Positions 4,361-48,491 of a stretch of DNA of 64,000 bases are shown one piece after another; the stretch's first letter is position 1; each line of letters begins with the position of its first letter. A model generated the notes under the pieces. That model ran no database searches and had not been told where the DNA came from. It worked only from the letters and a program-made list of their open reading frames with translations. The DNA is from an uncultured Ignavibacteriales bacterium (GTDB lineage: Bacteria; Zixibacteria; MSB-5A5; GN15; JAAZOE01). The translations under genes and the position numbers were made by a program. The stretch covers positions 1 to 64,000 of the forward strand of contig CAZSYD010000010.1 of assembly GCA_964611355.1 (NCBI GenBank). The letters run 5' to 3'.

Positions 4361-4566
4361 GCAAGGTTTATTAGACGTCGTATAAAATAAGGAGATACTA
4401 TCGAGCGTAGTTAAAGGGTTTAAATTGGAGAAATAGAGGTAATCCGTAATGTTGTCGGCGGATTGGCCCCGTATATGGAAATTGATTTGATGTACCCTTT
4501 GGCTGCGGTTGGATGGTATTTATTGTCCGACCGTGTTGAGGGCTTTTGCCCAAACATGGTTTTTTA

Positions 4567-7500
4567 ATGATAATAAAGAAGGCGTCAAAACCCTGCCCTG
4601 AATTCAAGATCGCAATTATCTTTGCGACTTTGCTTACCGCGTCGATCTGCTATTCCGGGAACGGTTCCATTTATTCCGGTTTTGATGTCCGACATGTGTC
4701 GCCGGATCATTTGACCATTAATTACAGTCCGAGTTTTTCGGATGATCTCTTGTCATTCCATGGGGCGGATCTGATCAGGTTAAACGGCAAAGACGTCTGG
4801 GGAAGGGTTTTTCTGGTTGCCGTGCCTCCCGATGGCGATCTGGATTTTTCAGTCAATTTCAGGCCCAACGGAACGACGGAAGCTCCCCCTGACGGTCGCT
4901 TCATTACCGGCGAAAACCCGCTGGTTATTCGCGGTTCAACTATCGAAGCCCGCCGTCATCGAATTGCAAGGATGTATGTATTTCCCCAGCGGCTTGAAGA
5001 AGGACGGCTGGCTGCATATACGGATATTGAAATAGATATATATTTCGCTGTCGGGAACAAAGCTGAGATACCGGTTCACCTTTCCCGATTGGATTCGGTC
5101 CTCGCAACCGCCGTTGTCAACCCCGACCAGTTTTTCAGCTTTGGCGCGTCTCCCCGGCCAATAGCGGCCTATAAAAAACTGACCGGCATGTTTGATAACT
5201 CGGCGCAGTGGCTTAAGGTTACCGTTAATGAAAACGGCGTTACCCGGATTGGCGGCAGCGATCTTCAGCAGTCGGGAATCAGTCTGACTAATCTGTCATC
5301 CGATTCAATCAGGATATTTTATGCCGGTGGTAAAAACCCGCCTGAAGACCCATCCGATGCCGATCCGGAGCTTTACCAAATAGCGATTAGTGTTGAAGCC
5401 GGCGGCGATGGGAAAATTGATGTCGGCGACAATATACTTTTCTACGCCGAAGCGCCAAGCCGTTTTGAATATGAAAGCGGAAAGCCGGAGTATCTGAAAA
5501 ATCCTTACAATGACCGTAATTACTACTGGCTGGCAGTTGGGGGTTACGCCGGTATAGCACCCTTGCGCTGGGAGTATAAAGACGGTTCTCCCTCTACAAC
5601 TCCCGATCACCTTGTTATCGCGACCCGTCAAATGGTGCGCGTTGAACAGGATAATCTTCTCGATTCGGACGGCGGCTCCATCTGGAATTATTACGACTGG
5701 TATTGGTCAGGTCAGGAAGCGATAAGCGTTTCGGTCAACCTGCCCGGTCTTTCGCCCGGTGATTCCATCGATATCGCCATGAAAGCTATCGGCGGTTTTG
5801 TCGGCACCGACATCACGCTGAACGGCACCCTGATGAACAGGTATTACGAATACGGCAATCGTTATTGGGATAAATCGGGCGCCGCTGTACCCGGGCTTAA
5901 CAGCTTGCAGATTGCCGTGAAGCCGCATGGTTCCGGCACCTATCTCGATTATCTCGATATTTCATATCTGATGCGGCTTCATTACGGCAACGATCAGATT
6001 GATTTCAATTCGTCCGGTTATTCCGGGCTTCTGCGTTACCGGGTAACCGGTTTCAATTCGTCGTTGTCGGCGCTGGATATAACCGATCCCGACCGACCGG
6101 CTCTGGTTAACGGAGTCGAGGTCAGCGGCGATACGGCCCAATTTCAGTTTCTTACCGGTGAAACGGCGGCGTCACGGTTTATAGCTTACGCGTCAGGTGA
6201 TGTCAAATCTCCAACGGCTGTGGAGAAGATGGAAATCCCCGGCTTGAGAACTGATTTGACGCAATACGATTGCGTTGTGATATCGCCGCGCGGTTTCCAG
6301 GAGGCACTCCAGGAATATGTTGCCTGTCGTCAGGCAACCGGCGGTTATAGGATCAAACTGGCGGCTCTTGAAGATATTTACGATAGTTTTGGTTTTGGTC
6401 TGGAATCGCCGATGGCGATTCGCAGTTATCTCAAGTACGCCTACGATAGTTGCGATGCCCCGGCTCCGTACGCGGTGGTGCTGGTCGGCGACGGCCATTA
6501 CGATTACCTCGACAATATGGGCCGTCATGTTTCTTCCTATGTTCCTCCCTATATCTGGTCCAAGGTAACTTCTACCGGTGATGATAACTACGTTTATTTC
6601 GGGAAAATCGACTGGCTTGATTCCGACAGCAGCCACATATATGTTCCGGATCGGGGCTGGGATATGATGATAGCCCGCTGGCCGGTCAGGTCGTCGGCAG
6701 AGGTATCCGATTATATCGCCAAATTGAAAAACTACGAGTCCGATGAAACAAAAGGAAGCTGGCGCAGCCGGATTACCTATGTCGCCGACGATGAATTCAA
6801 AGGCGAAAGTTCGAGCGAAATCATTCATACTGCCATGGCGGAAACGCTGGCGGTATTTCATACGCCGGCGGAATTCGTCAAGCAGAAAATCTACCTGACC
6901 GAATACCCTTTTGCCGCAAATGGAGAAAAACCGTCGGTCAATGACGCCATAATCAGGGCGGTCAATGAAGGAACATTAATTTTGAATTATATCGGGCACG
7001 GTTCGCCTGAAGTTTGGGCTGACGAGCATGTCCTGAAGAAATCGGCTGACCTGAACCGGATGAATAACAGCGATAAATTAGCCGTTGTGATTGCCGCCTC
7101 CTGTTCCATCGGCTTTTTCGATTCGCCCGACATGGAGAGCATGGCGGAGATTATGTTTCGTCAGCAGGGCGGGGCGGTAACGACCGTATCGGCAATGCGA
7201 ATGGTTTACGCCGGCGACAACTCGGTTTTCAATTATGATCTTTATGACGCCGTCTTTGCCGGCCGGTATAATATCAGCGAAGCCGTTTTTACAACCAAGA
7301 TGCTGCATCAATATGACAACGACTTTTCACTGATTCAAAACGATCGATCCTACGTGGTTTTTGGTGACCCGCTGGGCCGCCTGGGCCTGCCGGAGCGCCG
7401 CCTGGAAATCGTACCGGAAGACGGCGACGAGTTGATTCCGCTCGAAAGTTTTGTCTTCACCGGCCGGGTAACGGACACCGCCGGTAATACCGTTCCGGTG

Positions 7501-8442
7501 GAAGGCACGGTTGAAATCACGGTGTACGATTCGCCGATCATCAGGCATCACCGTCTGGGTCTCGATTATTCCCTGACCGGCCCGGTGATTTTCCGCGGGC
7601 CGGTGGAGGTTAAGAGCGGACTCTTTGGCGGTCAGTTTATGGTTCCGCTTGATGTCGATTACGGCGGTAGCGCCGCTCGCATTTCGGGCTATGGTTCGCT
7701 CGGTGTTGCCTCGGCTCTCGGCGGACTTGATTCGCTGGAAATCTCCGAAAATATATCCGCCACCACCGATAATTCCGGGCCGGATATTGTCTATTCGATT
7801 GAAGAAGCTCCGGGGTTTATCTCGGGCGGCAGGATTCCGGCCGACGCCACGCTCGTACTGGAGATATCCGACAATTCGGGCATCAATCTGACCGGCGGAC
7901 TGGGGCATCGGGTTGAGTTGATCTTCGATAACGACAACAACACGACCGTTAACCTGACCGATATGTTCAGTTATTATTCCGGGAGCTATCAAACGGGAGA
8001 GATACGTTTCACCCTGCCCGATCTGACCCCGGAGATGCATGTTTTCAAAGTCAAAGCCTGGGATAATGCCAATAATCCCGCCGTGGTTGAGTTTGAAGCG
8101 ATCCCGTCTCAGGAGGGGCGAATTGCGATTCACAGCCTTATGAACTACCCCAATCCGATGGAGGAAGCGACCGAGTTTTTCTTCGAGCTTTCGGAATCGG
8201 CCGAGTCGGTGGAACTTAAGATATTTACACTTTCGGGAAAGATGATAAAAGGCTTCCGAGAGGAAAATCCGGTAGTCGGACGAAACCGCCTGTTTTACTG
8301 GAATGGATGTGACGCAGACGGCGATCGAATTGCCGAGGGAGTATATATCTATAAGCTTACCGCTCGAGGCCGGGTTGTTTCGAAGGGGTCATCGGCCGAT
8401 AATATAGCTGAGGTTTTCGGCAAGCTTGTTCTGCTCAATTAA
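4567..8442 (+). CDS. porU: T9SS sortase PorU (peptidase C25) with C-terminal sorting domain
   Basis: Signal peptide from ATG 4567 (start uncertain), C25 motifs LVGDG, YVADD, NYIGHG (His), AASCSIG (Cys), FGDP, KAWDNANN, CTD NYPNP...GVYIYKL; directly upstream of porV. Confidence 0.88.
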   Translation: MIIKKASKPCPEFKIAIIFATLLTASICYSGNGSIYSGFDVRHVSPDHLTINYSPSFSDDLLSFHGADLIRLNGKDVWGRVFLVAVPPDGDLDFSVNFRPNGTTEAPPDGRFITGENPLVIRGSTIEARRHRIARMYVFPQRLEEGRLAAYTDIEIDIYFAVGNKAEIPVHLSRLDSVLATAVVNPDQFFSFGASPRPIAAYKKLTGMFDNSAQWLKVTVNENGVTRIGGSDLQQSGISLTNLSSDSIRIFYAGGKNPPEDPSDADPELYQIAISVEAGGDGKIDVGDNILFYAEAPSRFEYESGKPEYLKNPYNDRNYYWLAVGGYAGIAPLRWEYKDGSPSTTPDHLVIATRQMVRVEQDNLLDSDGGSIWNYYDWYWSGQEAISVSVNLPGLSPGDSIDIAMKAIGGFVGTDITLNGTLMNRYYEYGNRYWDKSGAAVPGLNSLQIAVKPHGSGTYLDYLDISYLMRLHYGNDQIDFNSSGYSGLLRYRVTGFNSSLSALDITDPDRPALVNGVEVSGDTAQFQFLTGETAASRFIAYASGDVKSPTAVEKMEIPGLRTDLTQYDCVVISPRGFQEALQEYVACRQATGGYRIKLAALEDIYDSFGFGLESPMAIRSYLKYAYDSCDAPAPYAVVLVGDGHYDYLDNMGRHVSSYVPPYIWSKVTSTGDDNYVYFGKIDWLDSDSSHIYVPDRGWDMMIARWPVRSSAEVSDYIAKLKNYESDETKGSWRSRITYVADDEFKGESSSEIIHTAMAETLAVFHTPAEFVKQKIYLTEYPFAANGEKPSVNDAIIRAVNEGTLILNYIGHGSPEVWADEHVLKKSADLNRMNNSDKLAVVIAASCSIGFFDSPDMESMAEIMFRQQGGAVTTVSAMRMVYAGDNSVFNYDLYDAVFAGRYNISEAVFTTKMLHQYDNDFSLIQNDRSYVVFGDPLGRLGLPERRLEIVPEDGDELIPLESFVFTGRVTDTAGNTVPVEGTVEITVYDSPIIRHHRLGLDYSLTGPVIFRGPVEVKSGLFGGQFMVPLDVDYGGSAARISGYGSLGVASALGGLDSLEISENISATTDNSGPDIVYSIEEAPGFISGGRIPADATLVLEISDNSGINLTGGLGHRVELIFDNDNNTTVNLTDMFSYYSGSYQTGEIRFTLPDLTPEMHVFKVKAWDNANNPAVVEFEAIPSQEGRIAIHSLMNYPNPMEEATEFFFELSESAESVELKIFTLSGKMIKGFREENPVVGRNRLFYWNGCDADGDRIAEGVYIYKLTARGRVVSKGSSADNIAEVFGKLVLLN

Positions 8443-8481
8443 CGACTTATTGTGATTTGGTCTATTTTTGGAGTGATTGTT

Positions 8482-11388
8482 ATGAAACAGGTTCGGACAC
8501 TTATACTGATTACCGCCATACTGGTTCTGGTTATCGCTCAGGCGGCTGAGGCGGTTTCCAACGCCGCCGTGCTTTACCTTCGGGTGGCGGCCGGATCCCG
8601 TCCGGCCGGCATGGGTGAAGCGTTTGCTTCGATTGCGGATGATGCTACGGCCACCTATTGGAATCCGGCTGGTCTGGGTAATGCCCCCATCGCGGGGGTA
8701 CTGACGACTGCGGTGCTGCCCGACAGGTATGGCGATATAACCGATGTCATTACCATGGAAGGAGCGATGGGGCGTGTCGAAACCTGGGTTATCGCCGGCG
8801 GCCGACTTCTGATGTTCGACGGCAATAACTGGAGTTCCGGCACCGAGTATCCGACTTCATCGGATCAAATGCTGGAAGATTTTCTTAAGACGATCATCGA
8901 TATAGAAGATGAAGAAAAGCTTGAAAACATGGCTGTCGGTGTAATAGACGCCAATTGCGCCGTTACCGAGGCGGAACTTGATACCTTTATAGAAATAGTC
9001 CAGACGTGGGTAACTGAGGATTACGACGCTCACGATGACCTGATTAATGGTTTGGAAAAACTGAAGGAAGGTTACCACGCCTGTTTATTGAATACGGAAC
9101 ATTTCCGCAGCCTGCAGGACAAGCTCAACGATGGTCTTAAAGACAGCGTCATGACCTCCGAGGAGCTTGACCGGATAACTTACTCTCTTGATCGCGTTGT
9201 TAATCGTTTTCTCCCGAGCCGATTGATCGTTCCTCATTCGACCGGTATCGGCGCCGACCTGACCTGCCTGGGTAAATCGGGGAAATACCTCTGGGTCGGA
9301 ACCAATGACGGCCTTTACCGGCGCGCGGGAAAAGCCTGGGCGCGGTTTTCAACCGACGATGTTCTGCCTTCCAATAATATCTCATGTATGGACAACAGCG
9401 GTGATTATCTGCTGATCGGCACCGATCAAGGCCTGGTACTCTACTATCATGGCTCATTTACCGGCTTCGATTACCTGCCGAAAGAACCGGTTGAGCAGAT
9501 AACTTTCACGGCAACCGATAACGGCTATGCCGTTATTGGCGGCGTAATCTATTCGTATGACGGACAGGGTTGGACCGACAGCTACGATTACGAAGTCCGC
9601 ATTGATGATAATATGGAAAAACTGATCGCCAGGGCGGGAGTGTATCATACTTCGGAGGAGTATGAATACCTGGAACGGAAAATCAGGGAACTCAATCGGC
9701 CGCAGTCATTGGAAACGGCGGCCGCCGCGGGTGAAGAGGCTGAATCGACGGAGGAGGGTCCGCCCGCCGATTCCCTTGCGGTTGATGCTGAACAGGCCGA
9801 GATCGAAGAGGTTGTTGAATCTGTCTCCGATACCGCTGCAGTATCAAAGGCAATAGAAGGTGAAGAAGGCGAAACTGTCGATGAATCTGAGCAGGCCGAG
9901 GTCAAAGAGGTTGTTGAACCTGTCTTGGACACCGCCGCAGTATCAGAGGCGATAGAAGGTGAAGAGGGTGAAGTTGTTGACGAATCCGAACAGGCAGAGG
10001 CTCTTGATGCTGAAGATGCGGAAATTCCTGAACACGGACTCGACTGGCTGGTCGAGGGCAACGTAATTCAATTGCCCTATTCACCTCGCTTACGGTATGA
10101 AGTAACCGCCATGACGGTGGATTTATACAACAATCTCTGGGTCGGCACTACTAACGGGCTTCTATCGTTTATAGGCAAAAACTGGACGCGATACGGATAC
10201 GACCGGTTTATGGTTCCGGTCGGAGGAGATTCGTTGAATGAGGCTGTTGCCATGACCGCTGAAGAGATCGCCCGTCATTATCTGCCCGGCGCCGATTCGA
10301 GCAGGATTGAGCTTCTGGCCGCCAATATAAATGATTACAATCAATTGAATGATGAATCAGTCCCTCCCGGCGAAACTATCTATGTTTACAACTCCAATAT
10401 CGGCGCATCTGTCCGGTCGACAGGCGAAGTTTTCGGTAATTTATACGCCGGTACCGAGTATGGTCTGGAAAAAATGACCGAAAGCGGGTGGGAAGAGGTT
10501 GGTTTCGAACAGCTTGACCAGAGGCAGGTTCTGGCGGCGTACGATTATGATGCCAAGGCTTATTACGTGTCTTCCCGGGGCATAACAACCGAAACGAGCG
10601 GGAGCCATGAACTTGTTCTGATGCACGTCAAATGGCTGCCCAACCTTGACCTGGATATGTACTACGAATTTTTGTCTTACGTGCATCACGTCCGTGGTAT
10701 CGGGACTTTCGGGGTTAGCGTAATTTACCTGACCTATGGGACGATTGAGTTTATGGATGAGCACGGAAACCCAACGGGGGAGGGACATCCGTTTGAAGTA
10801 ACCACCGCCTTATCGTACGGGTCATCACTAACGTCGAGTCTTAAATGGGGAATGACCGGGAAATTTATCCATTCCCATTTATCCGAACAGGGCGCCGGGC
10901 AGGAACGGGGAGAGGGTATTGCTTCCGCCTTTGCCTTCGATATGGGGATATTATATAAGATTTCCGAACGGTTTCAGTTTGGGGCGGCCATAAGCAACAT
11001 TGGTCCCAGGATTACTTATATCGACGCAGCCCAGTCCGATCCCCTGCCTCGCAATCTGGGCGTCGGCTTTTCATATAAACTGGTAAATTCCGCCTATAAC
11101 CGATTGACTATGCAGGTTGAAGCCAATAAGTTGCTGGTTGATATGAACGAGGGTTTGGGCAAGGAAATGGAAAACGCCATCCGCCACTTTGGCGCCGAGT
11201 ATTGCTACTCTAATCTTATTTCCTTGCGGGCCGGATATAAGTATGACAAGGAAGGCCAGGTAAAACATCTAACCTTTGGCGCGGGACTTAAACTGAGCGC
11301 GGCCCGGCTTGATTTTGCCTATGTGCCTTCATCGGAGGATTCTCCGCTGGCCAATACGCTGCGGATGTCATTCACGCTGGATTTGTAG
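8482..11388 (+). CDS. porV: PorV/PorQ-family outer membrane protein with a ~640-aa insertion
   Basis: N-terminal GSRPAGMGEAF..ADDATATYWNPAGL; C-terminal barrel from HELVLMHVKWLP with SNIGPRITY, DPLPRNL, GAEY, LRAGY, LTFGAG, SPLANTLRMS. Confidence 0.85.
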   Translation: MKQVRTLILITAILVLVIAQAAEAVSNAAVLYLRVAAGSRPAGMGEAFASIADDATATYWNPAGLGNAPIAGVLTTAVLPDRYGDITDVITMEGAMGRVETWVIAGGRLLMFDGNNWSSGTEYPTSSDQMLEDFLKTIIDIEDEEKLENMAVGVIDANCAVTEAELDTFIEIVQTWVTEDYDAHDDLINGLEKLKEGYHACLLNTEHFRSLQDKLNDGLKDSVMTSEELDRITYSLDRVVNRFLPSRLIVPHSTGIGADLTCLGKSGKYLWVGTNDGLYRRAGKAWARFSTDDVLPSNNISCMDNSGDYLLIGTDQGLVLYYHGSFTGFDYLPKEPVEQITFTATDNGYAVIGGVIYSYDGQGWTDSYDYEVRIDDNMEKLIARAGVYHTSEEYEYLERKIRELNRPQSLETAAAAGEEAESTEEGPPADSLAVDAEQAEIEEVVESVSDTAAVSKAIEGEEGETVDESEQAEVKEVVEPVLDTAAVSEAIEGEEGEVVDESEQAEALDAEDAEIPEHGLDWLVEGNVIQLPYSPRLRYEVTAMTVDLYNNLWVGTTNGLLSFIGKNWTRYGYDRFMVPVGGDSLNEAVAMTAEEIARHYLPGADSSRIELLAANINDYNQLNDESVPPGETIYVYNSNIGASVRSTGEVFGNLYAGTEYGLEKMTESGWEEVGFEQLDQRQVLAAYDYDAKAYYVSSRGITTETSGSHELVLMHVKWLPNLDLDMYYEFLSYVHHVRGIGTFGVSVIYLTYGTIEFMDEHGNPTGEGHPFEVTTALSYGSSLTSSLKWGMTGKFIHSHLSEQGAGQERGEGIASAFAFDMGILYKISERFQFGAAISNIGPRITYIDAAQSDPLPRNLGVGFSYKLVNSAYNRLTMQVEANKLLVDMNEGLGKEMENAIRHFGAEYCYSNLISLRAGYKYDKEGQVKHLTFGAGLKLSAARLDFAYVPSSEDSPLANTLRMSFTLDL
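9790..9999 (+). repeat. 99-bp (33-aa) acidic tandem repeat, about 2.1 copies, inside porV
   Basis: EQAEIEEVVESVSDTAAVSKAIEGEEGETVDES / EQAEVKEVVEPVLDTAAVSEAIEGEEGEVVDES / EQAE; units start at 9790, 9889 and 9988. Confidence 0.92.
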
Positions 11389-11448
11389 CCTGATTAAAAA
11401 TGGAGATTTTGACCGGCGGCTGGAAGCGGCCTTTATTGGTATCATAGG

Positions 11449-14400
11449 ATGAAACGGCATAAACTGATATTGTTCGCCTTGATCGGTTTTCTGCTTTTTC
11501 CCGGTTCTGTGCTGGGCGGGAAGATGCTGACGATTGATAAACGGGAAACGATCCCGGAGGATTCCCGAACCGCCGAAAATCACCGGGCCTTTTTCTCGGG
11601 CCGCTCGCGGGAGAACCTGCTTCAGCTTGAGCGAAAAACGCCCTTTGCATTCCCCAAAACGGCTATTCTGACCGGAGTGGTGGATACCATAAATATCCTT
11701 GCCATCAGGGTTGCTTTCGCCTGGGAGGATTCTGATGATCCGAATACCACCGGGCGGGGAACGTTTGACCTGCGCGATACGGCGACTTTTCTGCAGCAGG
11801 AAGGTCACGCCATGGATCCGGCCCCGCATAACCGGCATTACTTTGAAGCTCACCTGAGGGCGCTGAACCGTTACTGGAAAGTCGTTTCCAACGGTAAACT
11901 GCATCTTAATTACCAGGTCTGGCCGCAGGAATCGGATTCCTGTTATCATCTTGATTCGTCAATGGGACATTACGGTTCCCAGCCGCCCAATTTCGGGCTG
12001 GGAGAGTTTTTCCATAACGCTCTTAACAAGGCTTATGAAGTAGACGGCGGCAGCCTTGATTTTCGTGACGAGCGAGGGAGAAAAAAGGCAGTCGTCATTT
12101 TTCATGCCGGGGCGGATCAGCAGACCAATCTCTGGTTTTCGGAAACAAATACGCCTTACGACCTGTATACCGGTTTCGCTATTTTCGATTCTTTGAACTG
12201 GGTTGTTCTGGGCGAGGACACCATCGCCGAAGGAGTCATAATGCCGGAAACGATGACCCAGGATAACCGGGTCACCGTCATGAACGCCGTCATGGCGCAC
12301 GAGTTCGGGCATCAGCTTGGTTTGATAGATATCTACAACACCGGCAGCAGCCCGCTTTTGACCGAGGTCGGTGATTTCGCCCTGATGGATAACAACGGGT
12401 TGAATACGGCCGTTATCTTCGACGTTTACGGCGTGGGTGTGTTTGGTACCGTTCCGGTTTTTCCCTGCGCCTGGTCGCGCGCCTTCCTCGGATTTGATGA
12501 AGCGGTCGAGTACCGGCAGGGAACGTCAATCGAACTGGCGGCGGTCAAGATGCTTACTTCCGGTACGAAAGTCGCCAGGATACCGATCTCTTCAGCCGAA
12601 TATTACCTGCTTGAAAACCGCCGTTCCGACGTTGACGGAGAAGTGGAAGGATTGCAGCTTGACAGTTCGTCCAATGTTATCTTGGGCCCGGTTAAACGCG
12701 ATTTGGGCGGCGACAGCCTGATTCCCCTGCGCGAATATGACCTTAACATTCCGGAAGGTTCGGCCGGGATTGCCATCTGGCATGTTGACGAAGGCGTGGC
12801 GGCGGCGGATTATTTCCCCTTTGATATCTTTGATAACAATTTCAACGCCAACACCCTCCAGTGGGATCGCCGTCGGCGCTTCGTCAGGCTGGTGGAGGCC
12901 GACGGCAATATCGACTTCGGCGGCAATTACCATCGGGGTTTCGGGAAACCTCAGGACCTGTTTTACGAGGGGAATAATACTACTTTTGGCACTTATACAA
13001 ATCCGCCGAGTATTTCCAACGACGGCGGCTATACGCATATAACCATCTCAAATATATCGGCCCCGGCTATGACGATGACCTTTGATCTTTCGCAGGATCG
13101 AATGGCCGAAGCCTTCCCGCGGAGAATATCGATACCGACAAGTCCCGACCTTTCGCCGGTGGCGGCCGATCTTGACGGCGACGGCGATGATGAAATCCTG
13201 ACCGTCTCCGGCAAAAAGATACTGGCGCTTTTCGCCGACGGCCGCGATTTTCTCGATTCCCTGGGCATCCAAAAAGATTATGATACCGTTTACTGCCCGA
13301 TCAATTCGACTACGAATGTTAACTCTGAGCGTCCTATAGGTTTTACTGTCGAGCCTATGCCGATCTTCGCCGAGGTGCAGGATAATATCACGATCAGTCC
13401 GGTGGTGGCAACCTTTGGAGATACAACCATAGTTCTTGTGGGTACGCGCTTTGGGATGACTTACGCTTTTCTGACCACACCGTACTCATTCGGTATTCCG
13501 GACATGTTTCGTGCGCGAAGGTACTGGATCCGGTTTGTATCTGCCAGTGAGGTAAAGACGATTATTCCCGACGAGCATAATAATATTATTCATGTATTTC
13601 ATCGAAACGGGGAGGTAGTATCCTCTTTATGGGACAGCGTCAGTTCCGTTGCTGATACCAATGTTACGCGATTCAGCGGAGATATCACCGGCGCCTGCCG
13701 CTTTGGCGACGGCATGGCCGTAATTACCGAGTCGGGTGACGGTTCGATTCTTTATATGATGCGCGATGTCGGCGTTGCGCATCTGGACAACCGCGATACA
13801 TTAATTGCCGACAGTATTATCATTGCCGGTGAAACCGGGTTTCATCCGCCGATCGCGACCGATTTTAATCGCGACGGTATAGATGAGATTGTTCTGCTTT
13901 CGCATAACGGCCATGTCCTTTGCTACAGCTTTGATCCGTCTGGAATTGAAAAATACCAGCCTCTTGATATTTTTACCAATGATACCGCTGCCACTGGGCC
14001 GGTTGCAGGTGATTTTTCCGGAAATGGGTATCCCGAACTGATTATTCCCGGTACCAACCGGCTGTACGGGTATAATCGGGAAGGATTAACTGCTCTCGAT
14101 TTTCCGCTGACCGTCGATGACGGGCGTCCGGGTCAGCTAATTGTTTCCGGGCCGATTATATCCGATATCAGCGGCAACGGTTTCCCCGATATCGCCGTGG
14201 CGACTCTCGACTCTGCGGTTTATCCGAAGACGGCCATGATTTTTTATCTTGATACTCTCAGTTCGCCCGATACGACCTATCTTCGCACCAAAGATACGAC
14301 TTACTATTATTACAATTACTTCAGCAATATCTATGTCGTATCTCCCGGAAATTTTCGCGTTGACGGTTTCCCCGTTCCGGCGGGAATGTACGGCATAAAA

Positions 14401-14907
14401 TCACTTCGGGATACGGTGCTGGGCGTCGGCGCCCCGCTTCATCTTGAAGTCGAAAACGAAGGTTATCTGGTCAGTTGCGGCGGCGACGGTTGGTTGAATG
14501 CCTGGCGATGCGGCTGGACCGACGAGGCCGCCTTCTGGCCGATGGCGGGGCGTACGGCGGACGGCGCCGCTTACCTGCCCCTTGAAGAGCTTGGACAGGA
14601 AAGCGCCCTGTCGGAGTTATTACCCGAAGCACGATTCTTCGGTTACCCAAACCCGGCTACCGGAGAGAAAACGACTATTCGTTACTACGTCAGCCAGCCG
14701 GCCAGAGTAACCGTCACCATATTTGACGCCCTGGGTGATAAGGTCGCCGAAATGAAAAAAGAGGTTGCCGACGGCAACCGCGAAGACGAAATTCCCTGGA
14801 ATCTGGCCGGTGTCGCTTCCGGCGTGTATCATTGCCGCCTGGAGGCGGTCGCTCTTTCGGGTTCCGAACAAGCGGTAGCGTTTAAGAATATCGCGGTGGT
14901 AAAATAA
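11449..14907 (+). CDS. M6 (immune inhibitor A-like) metalloprotease with FG-GAP repeats and T9SS type A CTD
   Basis: IFHAG, HEFGHQLGLIDIY, EYYLLENR, IWHVDE, LVEADG; DLDGDGDDEI and DFNRDGIDEI repeats; GYPNP...ASGVY CTD. Confidence 0.85.
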   Translation: MKRHKLILFALIGFLLFPGSVLGGKMLTIDKRETIPEDSRTAENHRAFFSGRSRENLLQLERKTPFAFPKTAILTGVVDTINILAIRVAFAWEDSDDPNTTGRGTFDLRDTATFLQQEGHAMDPAPHNRHYFEAHLRALNRYWKVVSNGKLHLNYQVWPQESDSCYHLDSSMGHYGSQPPNFGLGEFFHNALNKAYEVDGGSLDFRDERGRKKAVVIFHAGADQQTNLWFSETNTPYDLYTGFAIFDSLNWVVLGEDTIAEGVIMPETMTQDNRVTVMNAVMAHEFGHQLGLIDIYNTGSSPLLTEVGDFALMDNNGLNTAVIFDVYGVGVFGTVPVFPCAWSRAFLGFDEAVEYRQGTSIELAAVKMLTSGTKVARIPISSAEYYLLENRRSDVDGEVEGLQLDSSSNVILGPVKRDLGGDSLIPLREYDLNIPEGSAGIAIWHVDEGVAAADYFPFDIFDNNFNANTLQWDRRRRFVRLVEADGNIDFGGNYHRGFGKPQDLFYEGNNTTFGTYTNPPSISNDGGYTHITISNISAPAMTMTFDLSQDRMAEAFPRRISIPTSPDLSPVAADLDGDGDDEILTVSGKKILALFADGRDFLDSLGIQKDYDTVYCPINSTTNVNSERPIGFTVEPMPIFAEVQDNITISPVVATFGDTTIVLVGTRFGMTYAFLTTPYSFGIPDMFRARRYWIRFVSASEVKTIIPDEHNNIIHVFHRNGEVVSSLWDSVSSVADTNVTRFSGDITGACRFGDGMAVITESGDGSILYMMRDVGVAHLDNRDTLIADSIIIAGETGFHPPIATDFNRDGIDEIVLLSHNGHVLCYSFDPSGIEKYQPLDIFTNDTAATGPVAGDFSGNGYPELIIPGTNRLYGYNREGLTALDFPLTVDDGRPGQLIVSGPIISDISGNGFPDIAVATLDSAVYPKTAMIFYLDTLSSPDTTYLRTKDTTYYYYNYFSNIYVVSPGNFRVDGFPVPAGMYGIKSLRDTVLGVGAPLHLEVENEGYLVSCGGDGWLNAWRCGWTDEAAFWPMAGRTADGAAYLPLEELGQESALSELLPEARFFGYPNPATGEKTTIRYYVSQPARVTVTIFDALGDKVAEMKKEVADGNREDEIPWNLAGVASGVYHCRLEAVALSGSEQAVAFKNIAVVK

Positions 14908-14917
14908 GGGGGAAATC

Positions 14918-15790
14918 GTGCGTTATTGTTCGAAATATAAAATTATTCCGGCGTTGACTCTTATTTTGGCTATTGTTTCCGGGGCGGCGTTTGCTTCGTC
15001 CGGCGCGCCGAAGAGTACCATTTTCATGCAGAATAACAGCGCCGCTGTCAGCAGCTATTTTACACGATTAAAAGGTGAGAATCTTATCTTTCGCCAAATA
15101 CAAAATAACACCGACCCGTCTTCGAGTTTTGACATTCGTGATTCCGGCGCTGCAAAAGAAGTGGATACAGATAAAAAGAATGTCAGGAAAGCGTTTCTCT
15201 ATTCGTTTGTCATTCCCGGCGCCGGGCAGATGTATACCGGTTCCAAAATCAAGGCGGTTTTGTTCCTCGGCGTCGAAGCGCTGGGATGGACAGGATATTT
15301 TACTTATCAGGGCCGTGGAGATGATAAGACAGGGATTTTTGAAGACTATGCCAATACTTACTGGTCGCGCCAGCAATATGCGGCGTTTCTGGATTCGGTT
15401 CCGCCGGAATACCATTTCACTCACGAACTTCCCGCAACCAACACGCAGCAGTATTATGAAATGATCGGCAAATACGATCAGTTTGTCTATGGCTGGGACG
15501 ATACCGAACCGCAGCCGCCCGATTATGAAAACATAGGCATCGCTTATTCGGCCCATCGCCTGCATTACGAGGATATGCGCCACGACGCCAATAAACAATA
15601 TGACCGGGCCACCAAGTCGCTTATCCTGGTAATGTTCAATCATCTGGTTTCCGGATTCGAGGCGGCTCTGTCGGCTAAAAGGCATAACGACCGGGTTGCT
15701 ATGCCGGCAGGCGGTATTTCGATAGAAGCGCAGATGGCCAGGATAGACTATGAACAAATTCCAATGTTGACCATGACTTACACGTTTTAG
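14918..15790 (+). CDS. Exported/membrane protein, DUF5683-like
   Basis: Signal peptide; KAFLYSFVIPGAGQMYTG; QQYYEMIGKY; C-terminal Phe. Confidence 0.65.
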   Translation: MRYCSKYKIIPALTLILAIVSGAAFASSGAPKSTIFMQNNSAAVSSYFTRLKGENLIFRQIQNNTDPSSSFDIRDSGAAKEVDTDKKNVRKAFLYSFVIPGAGQMYTGSKIKAVLFLGVEALGWTGYFTYQGRGDDKTGIFEDYANTYWSRQQYAAFLDSVPPEYHFTHELPATNTQQYYEMIGKYDQFVYGWDDTEPQPPDYENIGIAYSAHRLHYEDMRHDANKQYDRATKSLILVMFNHLVSGFEAALSAKRHNDRVAMPAGGISIEAQMARIDYEQIPMLTMTYTF

Positions 15791-24534: not shown

Positions 24535-24545
24535 ACGGAGGATTG

Positions 24546-25535: not shown

Positions 25536-25541
25536 ACAGCC

Positions 25542-27349: not shown

Positions 27350-27458
27350 AAGCGGTCATGAACGACAGGAGATGCAGCATATTCGAGTTTGCTCCGGTTG
27401 TCGACCTTAACCGGATTGGGCAGGTTATCGAGCGTTTCGAATCTTACCGGAGGAAGCC

Positions 27459-42470: not shown

Positions 42471-45400
42471 ATGAATAAACTTATGATTTTGCGGCGTGTG
42501 ACATTCTATATCGCTCTCCTCATACCGGTTGGTGTGGTGTGTCTTATGCCTTTGGCCGAAGCTGCTCCGCCGCAGTTCCACACCACGATGGACTTCCGGT
42601 TCACTCAGCTTTCTTCCTTTCCGGGTCTTGAACCCGGATTCATAATAAGTATTACCCCCGAAGAATACGTTTCTTTTGCCAAGTATGATGTTAGAAGAGA
42701 TTACGAATACTTCTTCGATTATCCCGAATACTCCATTACATTTGCCCGCCGCATAAAAGAAGATTTGAAGTTGATTCAGGTTACCAACGATATCGGCGCC
42801 TTCCAGGGAAGGCGGCTTGAATTGAAACAGCAGGAAATGGAATTTGACATCAACAAACGTTCGCTGGTTCGAGAACAGAGAAAGAAGGCGGGAGGCCTGT
42901 TCCAGATCACGATTCCGATCCCATCAAGAGCCTTTGAATCGATATTCGGCGAGGGAGGAGCCGGTCTGAAAGTTACCGGATATCGCCGCATTACCTTCTC
43001 CGGCCGATCAACCTGGAACGATCAGAAGCAAACGGCTTTTCACCGCCAGTCTAAATTCCCTTCGCTTGATATGGAGCAGGTGTATCGTTTCGATATTACC
43101 GGCACAATCGGATCAAAGATTACCGTCCAGGTCAGCCAGGATTCACGCAACGATCTGCCGTTGGCAAATCGCCTGATTCTCAGGTACCGGGGAGGCGAGG
43201 ACGACGTATTGCAGACTGTTGAGGCCGGCAATACGACATTGAATCTGCCGTCCACGCAATTCCTGAAGTATTCAACCATGGTGCAGGGGCTTTTTGGCTT
43301 TAAGGTCACCGCTCAGATCGCCGACCTGGCCGTTACCACAATTGTATCTCAGGAAAAGGGAACCACAGAGTCGGTTGAAGTAAACGCAGGAACGTCAAGT
43401 GCCAGCACCAAGGTGGTCCGCGATATCGAGTATAAAAAGCGGACGGTTTTCGACCTTGGGCGGTTGCCTCTCTATCGAGCCAGATCGGATGCTCTTACGG
43501 AAGATACGGTTTATGATTTTCTGCCCGGCTATGATTCGATTGTAAGCGCGATCATTTATGTGGATGATATGCCGACCGATCAATCGATTCGAGCCTCGCG
43601 GCCGGCCGGCGTTTGCTATATCGATCCCGATGATCCCAATACCGATGATTCTATCTATACCGCTATTGGAAATTTCGTAGAAGTTGATCCCACCGATTAC
43701 TATGTCAATCCGACAGGATTTTACGTTCTGTTTTTGCGTCCGGTCATCCATTCCAATGACGTTCTGGCGGTTTATCTTGAGGTTAGTCGAGAACGGGGCG
43801 GTTCGACCTATATTGACACCATTGGCGACATCACTACATTGCAGGATACTTTAATCCTGAAACTGATAAAGCCGACTTCCCACACCAGGGTGAATCATCA
43901 TGTTTGGGAGTATGAATGGAGGAATGTTTATTGGCTCGGCGGTTCCAATCTGGATTTGGCCGATCTGGAAGTGGAAATCTATAAAGGTTCGCCAATCGGC
44001 GGCAATCGGGTCGATCCGGATGATCCCAATAATCAGGATGGCGTCAAGTATCTTCAGATTTTCGGGCTGGATCAGTATAACGAAAGCAATCAAAGAATCC
44101 CTGACGGCAAAATAGACAGGAACCTCGGGCTGATCGATCCTACCCTGGGACTCTTATATTTTCCGGACCGGCATCCCTTTGATTCTCCCCTTGCCTTTGA
44201 CAGCACCGAGGATAGCGAACCGATTTTTCTTAAGGACAGCGTTCCGGAAATATACGTTTCCACCAATCAGAGTACTATTAGTCAGTCGTCGGAATATTAT
44301 TTGGCCATAATCTCCAGGCAGCGGGGGGCATCGACGATTAGTCTTAATTCGACCAATATCATTGAAGGTTCTGAGGTTATCACGTACGGCAATACCCGGC
44401 TGACCAAGGGGGTTGATTACAATATCGATTACAACTTTGGATCTCTGACGCTGTTGAAAGACGAATATACCGATATCAATTCCAATCTGTCGATTATGTT
44501 CGAGCGGGCGCCATTCTTTTCTCTCTCCAAGAAAACTCTTCTGGGAACGCGTCTTCTGTACGAACCACATCGCGATTTCAGGATCGGGACGACTATTCTG
44601 TACAAGTCGGACAAATCCACCAATCGCAAACCAAAAATAGGTGAGGAAACTTCCAAGATTCTGGTCGGGGATGTCGATTTCAACTACCGTTTTGAAAGCG
44701 GGCTTATTACCCGTCTGGCGGACGCTATCCCCTTTGTTTCGGCTACATCAACTTCAAATGTTCACATCGCTGGCGAGGCGGCGCAGTCTCGCCCCAATCC
44801 AAATGTTGACGGTCAGGTATATGTCGATGACTTCGAAGGCGCCAAAGACAGCTATTCTCTGGGCATTAAACGGACCATATGGCGTAAATGCTCCAGGCCG
44901 GTGGCCGTGGAAGATACGCTTTCCGAACGCGCACGAATAGGTTGGCACAATCCGATCGACGCTTATTCCGTTAGAGAGATTTGGAATCGCGACGAAGGCG
45001 GCGCCGATATCGCCAACGTCCTCAGGGTCTTATTTCAACCCGTGGATTTTAGGAGGACAAAAAATTATGCAGATAGTACGATAGATTCCATACCGGGAAC
45101 ACTGCCTCCTGAGAATTCCTGGAACGGGTTTATGCGCAATATTCCCGATGGCGTTGTCAGCCAGCTCGTCAATGCCCAGCTCCTGGAGATGCGGCTTAGA
45201 GGCGACGTCGGGATTATGCATATTGACTTGGGTATGATAAGCGAGGATATCGACGGTGATGGGCTTATCGACACCGAAGATCGGGACGGTTTCCATACCC
45301 TTGAGGACGACGAAGACATCGGCCTCGACGGGTTCCCGAATTCACTGGAATTCGGGTACGATCCTGAAAACGGCGTGTACGACCCGGCCGGCGATGATTT

Positions 45401-48400
45401 TGACCCGGATAATATCTGGAAAATCAACGGCACCGAGGGAAACGCTGATGATCCTGACGGCGGGTATCAGCCCGACACCGAGGACCCTCATCCCTACAAT
45501 GGCCTGAATAGAATGGACAGTTATTTTTCGTACAAGGTTGACTTATCCGATAATCGCTTTGAAGTTGCTCGTAATGACTCCAACTGGAAGACGATTCGTA
45601 TTCCCCTTCGTGGCGATCTTGCTCTTGATACCATAATCGGCCAGGCTTACTGGAACGAAATCAAGTATGCCCGCATCTGGTTTGATTCGGCCTCGGCCGC
45701 GTATTTGGATCCCAACGAGCCGATCGAAGTGGAAATCGCCTCCCTTGAACTGATCTCCACTACCTGGGCCGATTCGTTCTTCGTGGCCGATACGCTGAGA
45801 AGCGGCCCGGTCAGCTTTGACGTGGCTATCATCAATACCGAAGTGGACAGGGAGAGGTATAGTCCCCCGCCGGGGGTTGAAGGATATTACGACCCCGCCA
45901 GGGATATAGTTGAGAAAGAGCAGTCCCTTCTTTTAACCTTTGAGAACCTGAATTCCCAAGTGGTTGTAGATGATCCTCCCGGACTTGCATCTGACACCGG
46001 CCTGGCGGTGCGGAAACTGTTCCAGGCAGCAAATTACATGGGATACGGGAAGATCGAAGCGTTTGTTCATAGCAACGTCAGTAAAGACGACTCTGTTCGC
46101 TTTTTCTTCCGCGTGGGCACCGATAAGAACGCATACTATGAATACCGTACCGTGCTTGATTCCGGACCGACGACGTGGAACCCCGAAAACTATGTAATGA
46201 TTGATTTTGACGAAATCACCGCCCTGAAAGACAAGCTTCTTGACCTGCGCAAAAGAGAAGACGTGGATTCGCTGGTTATTCAGGATGGGAAGTATCTTGT
46301 TAAAATCAGCTCGAATGGCCGCGACCCGACGCTGACCAAGATCAAGTATTTCGCTATGGGTGTGGTAAATCTGAATAAGTCGAAAAAAGCATCCGGTGAA
46401 GTCTGGATTGACGAACTGCGTCTGACCGATGTTCGCAATAACGTCGGCATGGCGGCCAGGATTTCAGTCGGTGGAAATATGTCCGATCTGCTGACTTATA
46501 ATCTTAACTACTCCACCCAAGATGCCTATTATCGCGGGGTGGGCGTTACCACCAGGGGCGGAGCGACCAACAATCTCGGATCCGGGCAGACAAGGAAGAA
46601 TTATTCGTTCTCCGGATCGGTCAGGCTCGAAAAATTTTTCCCGCGATCTCTTGAAATGTCCATGCCGGTATCGGTCAACTGGTCTCAAAACGTCCAGAAA
46701 CCGCTGTTGCGTTCAGGCACTGATATCACCATTCCGGATGAGTTGAGGGATATTGAAACGAGTGTAAGTATTAACAAGGGTATTCGAATAAGTGAGAGTT
46801 TTAGGAAGAAAACCAGAAATATTCTTTTCACGCTCCTTTTGAATCAACTGAAGACATCATTCAACTACAGCACCAGCCGGGGCCACTCGCCGTCGCGGCC
46901 ATCGTATTTCAGTGAACGATACAACGCTAATGGCAATTATCAGATGAACTTGCCAAAGGCCCCGTCAATTCGACCTCTTAAATGGATGGGGCTTTTCAAG
47001 GCTCCCTTCGGACTGCCGGAAACGCAGCTTTATCTGACGCCCAACCGGCTTTCCATGACGGGGACGCTCACCGGCTCGTATTCCCGTTCCCTTAATGACA
47101 TAGGTTCGAATCCAAGCTCATCCGATCGGTTTTTTAGAGGCGGCATGAATGTCGGCTTCAAGGTTTTTGATAATCTCAACGGCACCTATGCCTATAACAC
47201 AAGCCGTGATCTTAAGGACCCTAACCTGATCAACATCACTATCAATCCAAAGAAGTTCAAACTGGGCGTGGAGCAATCCTACGATCAGAGTTTTCGGGTC
47301 AGCTATGCGCCCAAGATATTTAATTTCCTGACTCACTCGGCTGATTATTCGGCGCGTTACGGCGATCAATACCGGGTTAATCGTGATTCGGTCTTTTACC
47401 ATAGCGCCAGTCTGAGCACAAACGGCAATTTTAGCTTCGCTTTTAAGCATAAGTACCTTTTCGGCACCAACAAGCGTAGGGGCCTGGGGGGCATCAGGAA
47501 GGAAGAGAAATCGAAATCGTTTTTCAGGGGCTTCTACGCGATCACAATAACCGGCGTCAGGTATATCACCGATGCCATCAAGCCGGTGTCGGTAAAATAC
47601 AGCCGGGGCAAGAATACAACCTATCCTTCACTCTGTGACAAAGCCAGTATGAAATTCAGATTCGGTTTGACCGAGGATCCCGGAGTCGAACAGCTAAAAA
47701 CCTCCACCGGAATTGTCAGGAAATCCAAATGGACCAGCGATTCCTGGTCGGGGAGTTCCGGGGTATCGCTTTTTTACGGTATCAGTGCCGATCTGTCCTA
47801 TACCCGGAAAACGCGGGAAACCTTCGATGCCTATCCCACCAAAACTATTGATGAAACCTGGCCCAGTATTAAGTTTAATCTGAGGTCGATTAAAGGGCTG
47901 TGGATTTTGGGCGGGATAATGAACGCCCTTTCTCCCAGTTCCGGTTATACCCGCTCAACCAGTACCAAGCAGCGTACCAATGCCGCTTATCTGTCCGAAA
48001 AGAGAGAGCGGGAGGCTTTTGCGCCTCTCATCTCTTTCAGCATCAGGCCGGTCAGGGCAATACAGACTTCTGCGCGATACGAAACCAATACTTCGACTTC
48101 CACTAATTTCAACGAGGGTACCGGTGAGGTCAGGACGCAAACCAGGAATACATCGAAAAGCATTTCGTTCAGTAGTTCTTGTAATTTCCGCAAACCAACC
48201 GGAATCAAGATACCTATATTGGGGCGGATAAAATTTGAATCCACCATGTCGATATCAGTCAACGTTTCTTATCAGAAGACACGGGGCGAATCGGCCAACG
48301 CCGCCTCCAACTATGAATTTAAACGTACTTCGGAAAAGACCAATCTCAACATCCGGCCGAGCGCATCATACAGTTTCTCTTCGACCGTAAAGGGCGGTCT

Positions 48401-48491
48401 GTCAGGCCGATGGCAGGATTCGAATGACCTGCAAACGCGGAGAAAGAGTCATACCCGCGAATTGGGCATCTGGGCGGAGATGCACTTCTAA
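42471..48491 (+). CDS. sprA: T9SS translocon SprA/Sov homologue
   Basis: 2006 aa; FESIFG, GTIGSKI, GNTTLNLP, QGLFG, GVDYNIDY, YVDDFEG, ISEDIDGDG, EQSL, VWIDELRL; C-terminal amphipathic strands ending in Phe. Confidence 0.9.
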   Translation: MNKLMILRRVTFYIALLIPVGVVCLMPLAEAAPPQFHTTMDFRFTQLSSFPGLEPGFIISITPEEYVSFAKYDVRRDYEYFFDYPEYSITFARRIKEDLKLIQVTNDIGAFQGRRLELKQQEMEFDINKRSLVREQRKKAGGLFQITIPIPSRAFESIFGEGGAGLKVTGYRRITFSGRSTWNDQKQTAFHRQSKFPSLDMEQVYRFDITGTIGSKITVQVSQDSRNDLPLANRLILRYRGGEDDVLQTVEAGNTTLNLPSTQFLKYSTMVQGLFGFKVTAQIADLAVTTIVSQEKGTTESVEVNAGTSSASTKVVRDIEYKKRTVFDLGRLPLYRARSDALTEDTVYDFLPGYDSIVSAIIYVDDMPTDQSIRASRPAGVCYIDPDDPNTDDSIYTAIGNFVEVDPTDYYVNPTGFYVLFLRPVIHSNDVLAVYLEVSRERGGSTYIDTIGDITTLQDTLILKLIKPTSHTRVNHHVWEYEWRNVYWLGGSNLDLADLEVEIYKGSPIGGNRVDPDDPNNQDGVKYLQIFGLDQYNESNQRIPDGKIDRNLGLIDPTLGLLYFPDRHPFDSPLAFDSTEDSEPIFLKDSVPEIYVSTNQSTISQSSEYYLAIISRQRGASTISLNSTNIIEGSEVITYGNTRLTKGVDYNIDYNFGSLTLLKDEYTDINSNLSIMFERAPFFSLSKKTLLGTRLLYEPHRDFRIGTTILYKSDKSTNRKPKIGEETSKILVGDVDFNYRFESGLITRLADAIPFVSATSTSNVHIAGEAAQSRPNPNVDGQVYVDDFEGAKDSYSLGIKRTIWRKCSRPVAVEDTLSERARIGWHNPIDAYSVREIWNRDEGGADIANVLRVLFQPVDFRRTKNYADSTIDSIPGTLPPENSWNGFMRNIPDGVVSQLVNAQLLEMRLRGDVGIMHIDLGMISEDIDGDGLIDTEDRDGFHTLEDDEDIGLDGFPNSLEFGYDPENGVYDPAGDDFDPDNIWKINGTEGNADDPDGGYQPDTEDPHPYNGLNRMDSYFSYKVDLSDNRFEVARNDSNWKTIRIPLRGDLALDTIIGQAYWNEIKYARIWFDSASAAYLDPNEPIEVEIASLELISTTWADSFFVADTLRSGPVSFDVAIINTEVDRERYSPPPGVEGYYDPARDIVEKEQSLLLTFENLNSQVVVDDPPGLASDTGLAVRKLFQAANYMGYGKIEAFVHSNVSKDDSVRFFFRVGTDKNAYYEYRTVLDSGPTTWNPENYVMIDFDEITALKDKLLDLRKREDVDSLVIQDGKYLVKISSNGRDPTLTKIKYFAMGVVNLNKSKKASGEVWIDELRLTDVRNNVGMAARISVGGNMSDLLTYNLNYSTQDAYYRGVGVTTRGGATNNLGSGQTRKNYSFSGSVRLEKFFPRSLEMSMPVSVNWSQNVQKPLLRSGTDITIPDELRDIETSVSINKGIRISESFRKKTRNILFTLLLNQLKTSFNYSTSRGHSPSRPSYFSERYNANGNYQMNLPKAPSIRPLKWMGLFKAPFGLPETQLYLTPNRLSMTGTLTGSYSRSLNDIGSNPSSSDRFFRGGMNVGFKVFDNLNGTYAYNTSRDLKDPNLINITINPKKFKLGVEQSYDQSFRVSYAPKIFNFLTHSADYSARYGDQYRVNRDSVFYHSASLSTNGNFSFAFKHKYLFGTNKRRGLGGIRKEEKSKSFFRGFYAITITGVRYITDAIKPVSVKYSRGKNTTYPSLCDKASMKFRFGLTEDPGVEQLKTSTGIVRKSKWTSDSWSGSSGVSLFYGISADLSYTRKTRETFDAYPTKTIDETWPSIKFNLRSIKGLWILGGIMNALSPSSGYTRSTSTKQRTNAAYLSEKREREAFAPLISFSIRPVRAIQTSARYETNTSTSTNFNEGTGEVRTQTRNTSKSISFSSSCNFRKPTGIKIPILGRIKFESTMSISVNVSYQKTRGESANAASNYEFKRTSEKTNLNIRPSASYSFSSTVKGGLSGRWQDSNDLQTRRKSHTRELGIWAEMHF

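Follow-up and report, generated by a model that had tools for sequence, protein, structure and literature searches.

PorV is generally regarded as a simple FadL-like barrel, moving by diffusion within the outer membrane between the translocon SprA and the attachment complex of PorU in the T9SS (type IX secretion system). In Porphyromonas gingivalis another barrel of this system, PorP, is coupled to PorE, which the available parts of the relevant papers describe as a periplasmic lipoprotein with TPR, WD40 propeller and CRD domains and a peptidoglycan-binding OmpA_C domain (10.1101/2020.05.13.094771; PMC7192894; PMC12773672). The LysM module is a beta-alpha-alpha-beta fold of 43–50 residues that, according to the available part of the source, binds polymers containing N-acetylglucosamine (GlcNAc) generally, with single modules binding weakly and several together additively (PMC4083421). 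Here we describe a long porV gene in a 64,000-nucleotide stretch of contig CAZSYD010000010.1 from a Zixibacteria genome (the whole of this stretch is referred to as the window, and all coordinates on it are given in that numbering). Its product is a real and undescribed variant of PorV, in which a domain of 642 residues, predicted to form a beta-propeller with LysM-like modules between its blades, separates the hatch from the barrel.

A PorV Ortholog Interrupted Between Hatch and Barrel

A word-index search with the protein recovered 28 homologs of 862–977 amino acids (aa; E ≤ 3.5e-131), among them two named Zixibacteria and one FCB group bacterium, and the public annotation of relatives goes no further than 'PorV/PorQ family protein' or 'hypothetical protein'. 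The long protein scored 254.5 bits against PorV_fam (NF033709, cut-off 90) and 85.3 bits against PF19572 (cut-off 27), with Pfam PorV covering residues 726–897 only, equivalent to positions 62–239 of the 243 in the profile. Against the PorV equivalog model NF033710 it reached 193.5 bits in three stretches that are split by the insert, and it is because of the insert that this score stays under the cut-off of 250. The same model ranks it first among the four PorV/PorQ-family genes of the genome, one long and three short (326–331 aa), the others scoring 98.4, 76.7 and 74.8 bits.

The alignment to PorV of Flavobacterium johnsoniae (6h3i_F) falls into three pieces (query 1–77 to chain 1–77, 711–894 to 74–266 and 887–966 to 310–393). 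Since both this alignment and the Pfam alignment break there, the additional residues are placed as an insertion near residue 73 of the PorV chain, where they follow YWNPAGLG (8656–8679) and precede HELVLMHVKWLP (10606–10641) and the first barrel strand. The original prediction, which was made from the sequence before any search, had located the interruption at the same YWNPAGLG. The gene is a single stop-free open frame and base composition is even across both joints of the insert.

The open frame extends over 8452..11388 (+), 978 aa when counted from GTG 8452, but the likely start is ATG 8482 (MKQVRT...) because all homologs begin there. The signal, as read from the sequence, is of the signal peptidase I type. 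No other stretch is as strongly conserved in the family as the hatch that follows, which has many invariant columns between L33 and P69 (in the numbering of P0002) and invariant W60, N61 and P62 in the NPA region of the 28-homolog alignment. It aligns to residues 1–77 of 6h3i_F, and model residues from 45 onward pair with the PorV chain from residue 29.

The full-length protein was modeled with AlphaFold from the 28-sequence alignment (mean predicted local distance difference test, pLDDT, 75.8; predicted TM-score, pTM, 0.64), and every structural statement made here rests on models from this alignment, the coordinates of which were not inspected. In a Foldseek search with the full model PorV 8gl6_F ranked first (E 9e-17), with FadL and TodX appearing after the propellers of hybrid two-component system (HTCS) sensors. 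VIA gave Z 25.3 to 8gl6_F over model residues 45–968 (284 aligned, 28% identity) and Z 25.1 to 6h3i_F. In the models the chain runs from a signal peptide through a FadL-type hatch and the 642-residue insert to a predicted barrel of 14 strands (Table 1).

Because porU lies directly upstream, the equivalog score is the highest in the genome and both sprA and sorting-domain genes are present in the genome, we assign the long gene as the PorU-partnered PorV ortholog of a Zixibacteria T9SS, positioned between porU and a T9SS-sorted M6-like protease.

Table 1. Features of the long porV locus and of sprA, numbered on the whole window; structural features within porV are predictions.
Feature	Coordinates	Strand	Evidence and remarks
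porU, T9SS sortase with C-terminal sorting domain	4546..8442	+	directly upstream of porV; PorU 625.2 bits (cut-off 420, NCBIfam); Peptidase_C25 1.5e-75
Long porV	8482..11388	+	968 aa from ATG 8482; NF033709, NF033710, VIA
Signal peptide (MKQVRTLILITAILVLVIAQAAEA)	8482..8553	+	read from sequence; all 28 homologs start here
FadL-type hatch with NPA motif	8554..8679	+	alignment of 28 homologs, 6h3i_F alignment, structure alignment
642-aa insert, predicted seven-bladed Reg_prop propeller with three LysM-like modules	8680..10605	+	VIA and Foldseek on predicted model
M1, after blade 1 (residues 120–251)	8839..9234	+	DSSP E120–124, H131–138, H144–158, E247–251
Four-helix insert nested in M1, in the loop that joins helix 2 to strand 2 (residues 160–242)	8959..9207	+	H163–176, H184–199, H205–219, H226–239
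Blades 2–4 (LWVGTNDGL, LLIGTDQGL, YAVIGGVIY)	9247..9576	+	three four-strand sets, pLDDT ~90
M2, after blade 4 (residues 367–532), predicted LysM fold split by acidic tract	9580..10077	+	VIA (tract trimmed), hhalign
Disordered acidic tract nested in M2 (residues 405–520)	9694..10041	+	pLDDT <50 in both models
Blade 5 (LWVGTTNGL)	10102..10194	+	E541–571; weak Reg_prop match at 551–568 of P0001
M3, after blade 5 (residues 573–636), predicted contiguous LysM fold	10198..10389	+	VIA; ~12 extra residues in the loop connecting strand 1 to helix 1
Blades 6–7 (LYAGTEYGL, KAYYVSS)	10411..10596	+	DSSP
14-stranded PorV barrel	10606..11385	+	predicted model; aligns to PorV 74–393
M6-like metalloprotease with FG-GAP repeats and T9SS sorting domain	11449..14907	+	downstream of porV; NF052323 318.7 bits (cut-off 600), Por_Secre_tail
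sprA, T9SS translocon	42471..48491	+	TIGR04189 (cut-off 200), total of 555.7 bits over a single 2008-aa frame

The Insert Is Predicted to Form a Seven-Bladed Propeller

Across the insert pLDDT is about 85–95, with the exception of residues 409–518. VIA aligned model residues 71–707 with seven-bladed propellers at Z of about 22 over approximately 265–277 residues, including BT4663 (4a2l_D; Z 22.8, 277 aligned) and the seven-bladed virginiamycin B lyase (2z2n; Z 21.8, 269 of 293 aligned). In Foldseek the propellers of the HTCS sensors BT4663, BT4673 and BT3049 came next after PorV (E about 1e-8), and PorZ 5m11 was found at rank 49 (E 2e-5), accompanied by a weak NCBIfam match to PorZ. Pfam Reg_prop (PF07494) gave 16.7–18.2 bits in the protein of the window (cut-off 20.4), and reached 59.8 bits in a relative of the same architecture, P0118.

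Seven strand sets, corresponding to seven blades, were counted in the insert model by DSSP, and the strand count makes the N-terminal strand 74–78 the probable closing strand of blade 7. As modeled, the insert is a seven-bladed Reg_prop propeller in which LysM-like modules, here referred to as M1, M2 and M3, are spliced in behind blades 1, 4 and 5, in each case following the outermost strand. Each module follows an xGxxW blade end and consists of a strand, two helices and a later return strand. The original prediction had recognized a beta-propeller from its sequence motifs, a reading that structure prediction and both fold searches support, and every motif it quoted was found in place (blade motifs at 9289, 9409, 10135 and 10441), as were the edges of its three modules (8848/9234, 9589/10077 and 10207/10386).

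The Insert Probably Lies on the Periplasmic Side of the Barrel

Outer-membrane barrels have their short turns and their C-terminus in the periplasm. In the predicted barrel the connections S2/3, S4/5, S6/7, S8/9, S10/11 and S12/13 are 2–4 residues long, and the alternate connections measure 5–19 residues, with at least nine in five of the seven. Because the short turns and the C-terminus are on the side where strand 1 begins, strand 1 would start in the periplasm. Since strand 1 also begins only three residues past the last propeller strand, and the hatch aligns to the PorV hatch, the insert is placed at the periplasmic mouth of the barrel. The models thus make a periplasmic insert, starting where the hatch leaves the barrel lumen, a strong inference, and they agree with the side on which the insert had originally been predicted.

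A surface-exposed, PorZ-like module fused into PorV would account for the resemblance of the blades to those of PorZ, and both PorU and PorZ act at the cell surface. However, such a module would have to reach the opposite face of the barrel from an end that sits immediately ahead of strand 1 on the side of the short turns, with a linker too short to cross the barrel and no longer one present in the model, and we regard this explanation as highly improbable.

LysM-Like Modules Between the Blades

A second model covering residues 363–640 (M2, blade 5 and M3), with ordered parts at pLDDT of about 90, was compared by VIA with 48,161 representative chains. Twelve whole-model alignments had Z ≥ 5 (14 rows after a second alignment), the top rows were mostly LysM proteins, and LysM was named in the title of 7 of the best 50 rows. 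M2 matched the Volvox LysM 5k2l (Z 5.4, root-mean-square deviation [rmsd] 1.9, 48 residues aligned of a chain of 49) and the MltD LysM 1e0g (Z 4.5, rmsd 2.0, 47 of 48). M3 matched SleL 4s3j (Z 6.2, rmsd 2.6, 52 aligned), the AtlA LysM 2mkx (Z 5.1, rmsd 2.1, 51 of 51) and Ecp6 4b9h (Z 5.4), and the two-LysM chain 4uz2 spanned M2 and M3 together (Z 5.5, 95 of 99). SleL, LYR4, LYK3, CEBiP, L,D-transpeptidases, Kbp, MltD, TsaP, MoCVNH3 and P2 gpX, all among the fold matches, carry LysM as well.

The reference for profile comparison with hhalign was a set of 33 natural LysM domains taken from the genomes of 21 relatives. M2 aligned to these over 19 columns in register (P 3.4e-4), a weak match, and M3 over nine columns (P 0.006), a marginal one; M1 showed nothing significant (P 0.11), and four control regions compared with LysM gave P 0.1–0.85. 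Among the modules themselves, the N-terminal part of M1 aligned to M2 over 45 gapless in-register columns (P 0.003), and M2 against M3 gave P 0.12. An Asn ends helix 2 in each module, invariant in M2 (N405) and M3 (N620) and near-invariant in M1 (N158). The WLVEGN motif just before strand 2 of M2 is near-invariant as well, despite the acidic tract directly preceding it. A search of the ESM Atlas with M1 (residues 116–255) returned no usable match.

The acidic tract occupies the place in M2 that is equivalent to that of the four-helix nest in M1, and these two interruptions correspond to the helical and acidic inserts by which the first two modules had been predicted to be split. The tract varies in length even between close relatives, and P0028 and P0029 are without it. 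A 99-bp unit repeated 2.2 times at 9788–10000 (83% matches, tandem repeat score 300) encodes a doubled acidic peptide in M2.

The claim of three LysM-like modules was borne out in part. In the models M2 and M3 have the LysM fold, although they are not LysM by the Pfam model, which matches none of the three, and M1 fits a LysM-like topology in its strand-helix-helix-strand order only.

Distribution and Origin of the Insert

A match to the insert was obtained in every one of 201 genomes spread over the phylum (19 families; 108 of 108 genera); the listed matches were mostly in frames of 860–1060 aa, and the genomes at the weak end (best E 3.1e-7 and 1e-13) are counted on the search match alone. 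An exhaustive search recovered 50 representatives at E ≤ 1e-30, together with shorter forms of 724–820 aa combining PorV and Reg_prop, which retain M2 and M3 and are without the four-helix nest and the acidic tract.

The length of porV, a comparison already envisaged in the original prediction, was surveyed in species-representative genomes and gave a long match at 40 of 80 loci and a match of about 1 kb at the other 40. Records of the long loci are titled Zixiibacteriota (16), Ignavibacteria/Ignavibacteriales (6), Gemmatimonadota (1), Calditrichaeota (1), UBP14_UBA6098 or simply 'bacterium', bin labels that may be loose, and titles of the short loci include KSB1, Calditrichota, Latescibacterota, Deferribacteres and 'Cytophagia'.

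An M6-like gene lies downstream of porV in 38 of the 40 long and 38 of the 40 short loci, which span several FCB phyla, and the short-PorV KSB1, Calditrichota and Latescibacterota share the synteny of porV with the M6-like protease. PorU is encoded upstream of porV in 30 of the 40 long loci, and seven of the other ten have less than 500 nucleotides of upstream sequence. Three loci forming one long-PorV subclade (L075, L076 and L080) have approximately 6 kb upstream of porV without PorU; the porU–porV link is broken in this subclade. Among the 40 short loci, PorU was found upstream of porV only in L111, L117 and L130.

This conservation also bears on whether the insert could be an assembly chimera or a mis-joined gene. 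The uninterrupted frame and even joints described above argue against it, as does the recurrence of the same architecture in the 28 homologs from several sources, in the 201 genomes and at half of the 80 loci from independent records. We rejected a chimeric assembly because the architecture is conserved phylum-wide, which disposes of the artifact that the original prediction had named as a risk, and we consider its residual probability negligible.

In an alignment of PorV sequences the 37 long rows (36 loci and the window) all share a single insertion site, at which they have 400–720 residues, and the 37 short rows and the genome's three short paralogs have no residues there. Seven loci were dropped, six for open-ended frames (L078, L086, L092, L097, L101 and L118) and L137 for a failed motif search. 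A tree was built from the 337 columns of hatch and barrel, leaving out those of the insert and taking the genome's own three paralogs as outgroup. It requires two changes between long and short labels, of which well-supported branches force one, and a tree constrained to keep the long rows together had a log-likelihood 2.97 higher (p-AU 0.661, approximately unbiased test). A single gain of the insert is compatible with these data, though not proven by them.

A Possible Cell-Wall Tether and Its Alternatives

A periplasmic propeller domain of 400–720 aa kept in PorV across the phylum suggests that PorV therefore has a second, periplasmic job there. We tentatively propose, at a little less than an even chance, that the insert with its propeller and LysM folds tethers PorV to the cell wall. 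The propeller would act as a rigid scaffold on which as many as three LysM modules, each a weak glycan binder, are held out to the peptidoglycan, and the acidic tract may serve as a flexible spacer or lid. The insert would thereby tie PorV, plus the surface sortase PorU held by PorV, to the wall, and PorV would be a fixed or slow-moving station beside SprA instead of a free shuttle. One chain could then do the work of two P. gingivalis proteins, the PorP barrel and the PorE lipoprotein.

Several observations weigh against such a tether. About 10 of the top 29 VIA matches to the modules are phage or contractile-injection baseplate chains, whose matched domain we take to be LysM-like and structural in role, and Z of 4.5–6.2 is middling by the scale of the tool, on which values below 8 may reflect a common arrangement. 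A Foldseek search of the PDB with the M2–blade 5–M3 fragment gave no match at E ≤ 0.001. Pfam LysM (PF01476), with E values as high as 10 allowed, matched neither the insert nor its module pieces; in a six-frame search of the genome it matched only one 686-aa frame elsewhere and none in porV; and among its listed matches in 21 genomes, none was in a frame of long-PorV size (860–1060 aa), the genes behind these frames being unchecked. The hatch was modeled at low pLDDT, and the modules may face in any direction. The loops that form the glycan groove of LysM, as described in the available part of the source (PMC4083421), hold inserts in all three modules (four helices in M1, the acidic tract in M2 and about 12 extra residues in M3). 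Finally, the shuttle role of P. gingivalis PorV, as far as the accessible part of the source presents it, is hard to square with a tether (PMC5562754).

The baseplate matches, the filled groove loops and the silence of Pfam LysM would be at home with a different role, in which the propeller is a periplasmic docking platform for another T9SS part, for the periplasmic face of SprA or for the sorting domains of cargo ahead of export, and the LysM-fold modules are structural decoration without affinity for glycans. Beta-propellers are common protein-binding platforms, and many WD40-type scaffolds are among the top VIA matches. Three copies of a glycan-binding fold with Asp/Asn at LysM-typical positions, kept phylum-wide, would however be unneeded for a mere scaffold. 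The nearest relatives of the propeller, the HTCS sensors, bind glycans according to their entry titles, which also sits poorly with docking, and we consider this role rather unlikely, if serious.

The ligand of the insert could also be a periplasmic glycan other than peptidoglycan, e.g., the polysaccharide or lipopolysaccharide to which the sortase attaches cargo, with the insert feeding or sensing it. Entry titles report heparin and other glycans as ligands of HTCS Reg_prop propellers; the general affinity of LysM for GlcNAc-containing polymers would suit such a ligand (PMC4083421, available part); and the double propeller of PorZ, the 5m11 match, delivers anionic lipopolysaccharide to PorU, as described in the accessible part of the source (PMC8545088). 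PorZ works at the cell surface, however, whereas the insert is periplasmic by topology. Moreover, the genome has a separate PorZ-like gene, and HTCS sensors have two propellers where the insert has one. We find this reading improbable.

Extending the proposed cell-wall tether to the whole system, the PorU-associated PorV of Zixibacteria could be a stationary hub on the cell wall instead of a shuttle, with the delivery of cargo left to short PorV-like barrels encoded beside individual cargo genes, making up a T9SS of fixed stations, possibly without the PorKLMN motor. This picture is doubtful at present. The long PorV provides a natural experiment on the need of PorV for mobility, and its family could serve as a compact model for how part of this secretion machinery is coupled to the cell wall. 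LysM folds inserted between the blades of a propeller are also rare, and the insert is a clear marker for following how type IX secretion has evolved beyond Bacteroidota. In a literature search whose scope stopped short of subscription papers and supplements, we found none joining PorV or type IX secretion with Zixibacteria, and among the papers listed for PorV and LysM none was relevant by title.

Other T9SS Genes and Neighboring Features

The three short PorV/PorQ barrels of the genome lie at L002 1267–2262 (−), L003 1000–1989 (−) and L004 1264–2244 (−). Two of them are directly downstream of large genes whose ends match a T9SS sorting domain, an arrangement that recalls barrels partnered with a specific cargo. 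At least 20 frames in the genome were picked up through the sorting-domain portion of the PorZ model. The PorZ-like candidate is a 762-aa frame on contig C20 at about 10562–12733 (L005/L011), which matched at both ends with 78.9 and 25.5 bits (cut-off 260) and from its sequence is possibly a PorZ-like double propeller with a sorting domain.

Models for GldM (TIGR03517, PF12081) and GldK (TIGR03525) had no match in the genome, a search that lacked a positive control and so does not show absence, and PF12081 likewise had none, again with no positive control, in five further FCB genomes whose PorV is long or short. The PorP family model TIGR03519 found nothing beyond one of the short PorV-like paralogs, at 19 bits. 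A PorE-like architecture was found in none of the three largest of seven frames with an OmpA domain, which combine CsgG with OmpA, an unknown region with OmpA and a barrel with TSP3 and OmpA; the other four frames (176–288 aa) were unscanned and the search had no positive control.

The M6-like gene downstream of porV is nearest to the NCBIfam model 'T9SS-dependent M6-like inactivated metalloprotease', yet its HExxH motif is intact (AHEFGH), and because of this the protein may be an active protease. It is followed by two genes in tandem whose DUF5683 matches are weak and do not reach the cut-off (14918–15790 and 15794–16591), an NHL-repeat propeller (16594–17568), a 1103-aa protein without a Pfam match (17552–20863) and an Omp85/POTRA protein (20808–22541). 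A Bat-like cluster, with MoxR-type AAA ATPase, DUF58/VWA and BatD-like genes, lies downstream of the T9SS genes at 24543–28532.

Comparison With Known Systems

With canonical PorV (F. johnsoniae 6H3I and 8GL6; P. gingivalis) the long PorV shares the FadL-type hatch, the NPA motif, the 14-strand barrel as modeled, the gene position next to porU and a genome with SprA and sorting-domain frames. The difference lies between hatch and strand 1, where the canonical PorV of sister phyla has no residues and the Zixibacteria PorV has a periplasmic domain of 400–720 aa.

The blades of this domain resemble those of HTCS sensors (BT4663, BT4673 and BT3049) and PorZ, all with seven-bladed Reg_prop propellers and the motif LWVGT..GL. 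In HTCS sensors and PorZ the propellers come as a pair, whereas the insert has a single predicted propeller with LysM-fold modules between its blades, within an outer-membrane protein. A LysM fold in the periplasm of diderms is shared with TsaP of the type IVa pilus secretin (3jc8_Ta), MltD and L,D-transpeptidases, all of which are among the fold matches. TsaP anchors the secretin to peptidoglycan. LysM domains of the TsaP and MltD type are strung on linkers, in contrast to the modules described here, which in the models are spliced into a propeller, are silent in Pfam and in two of three cases are interrupted.

The closest functional parallel to the proposed tether is PorP–PorE, with which, as far as the available parts of the sources cited above describe it, the long PorV shares a T9SS barrel coupled to a propeller in the periplasm and to a module of a type that binds the cell wall. 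PorP–PorE consists of two proteins, whereas Zixibacteria have one chain with a PorV barrel, predicted LysM-fold modules and Reg_prop, without TPR or CRD, and none of the Pfam families of PorE is found in the long PorV. The long PorV is an analog of PorP–PorE rather than a homolog of PorE.

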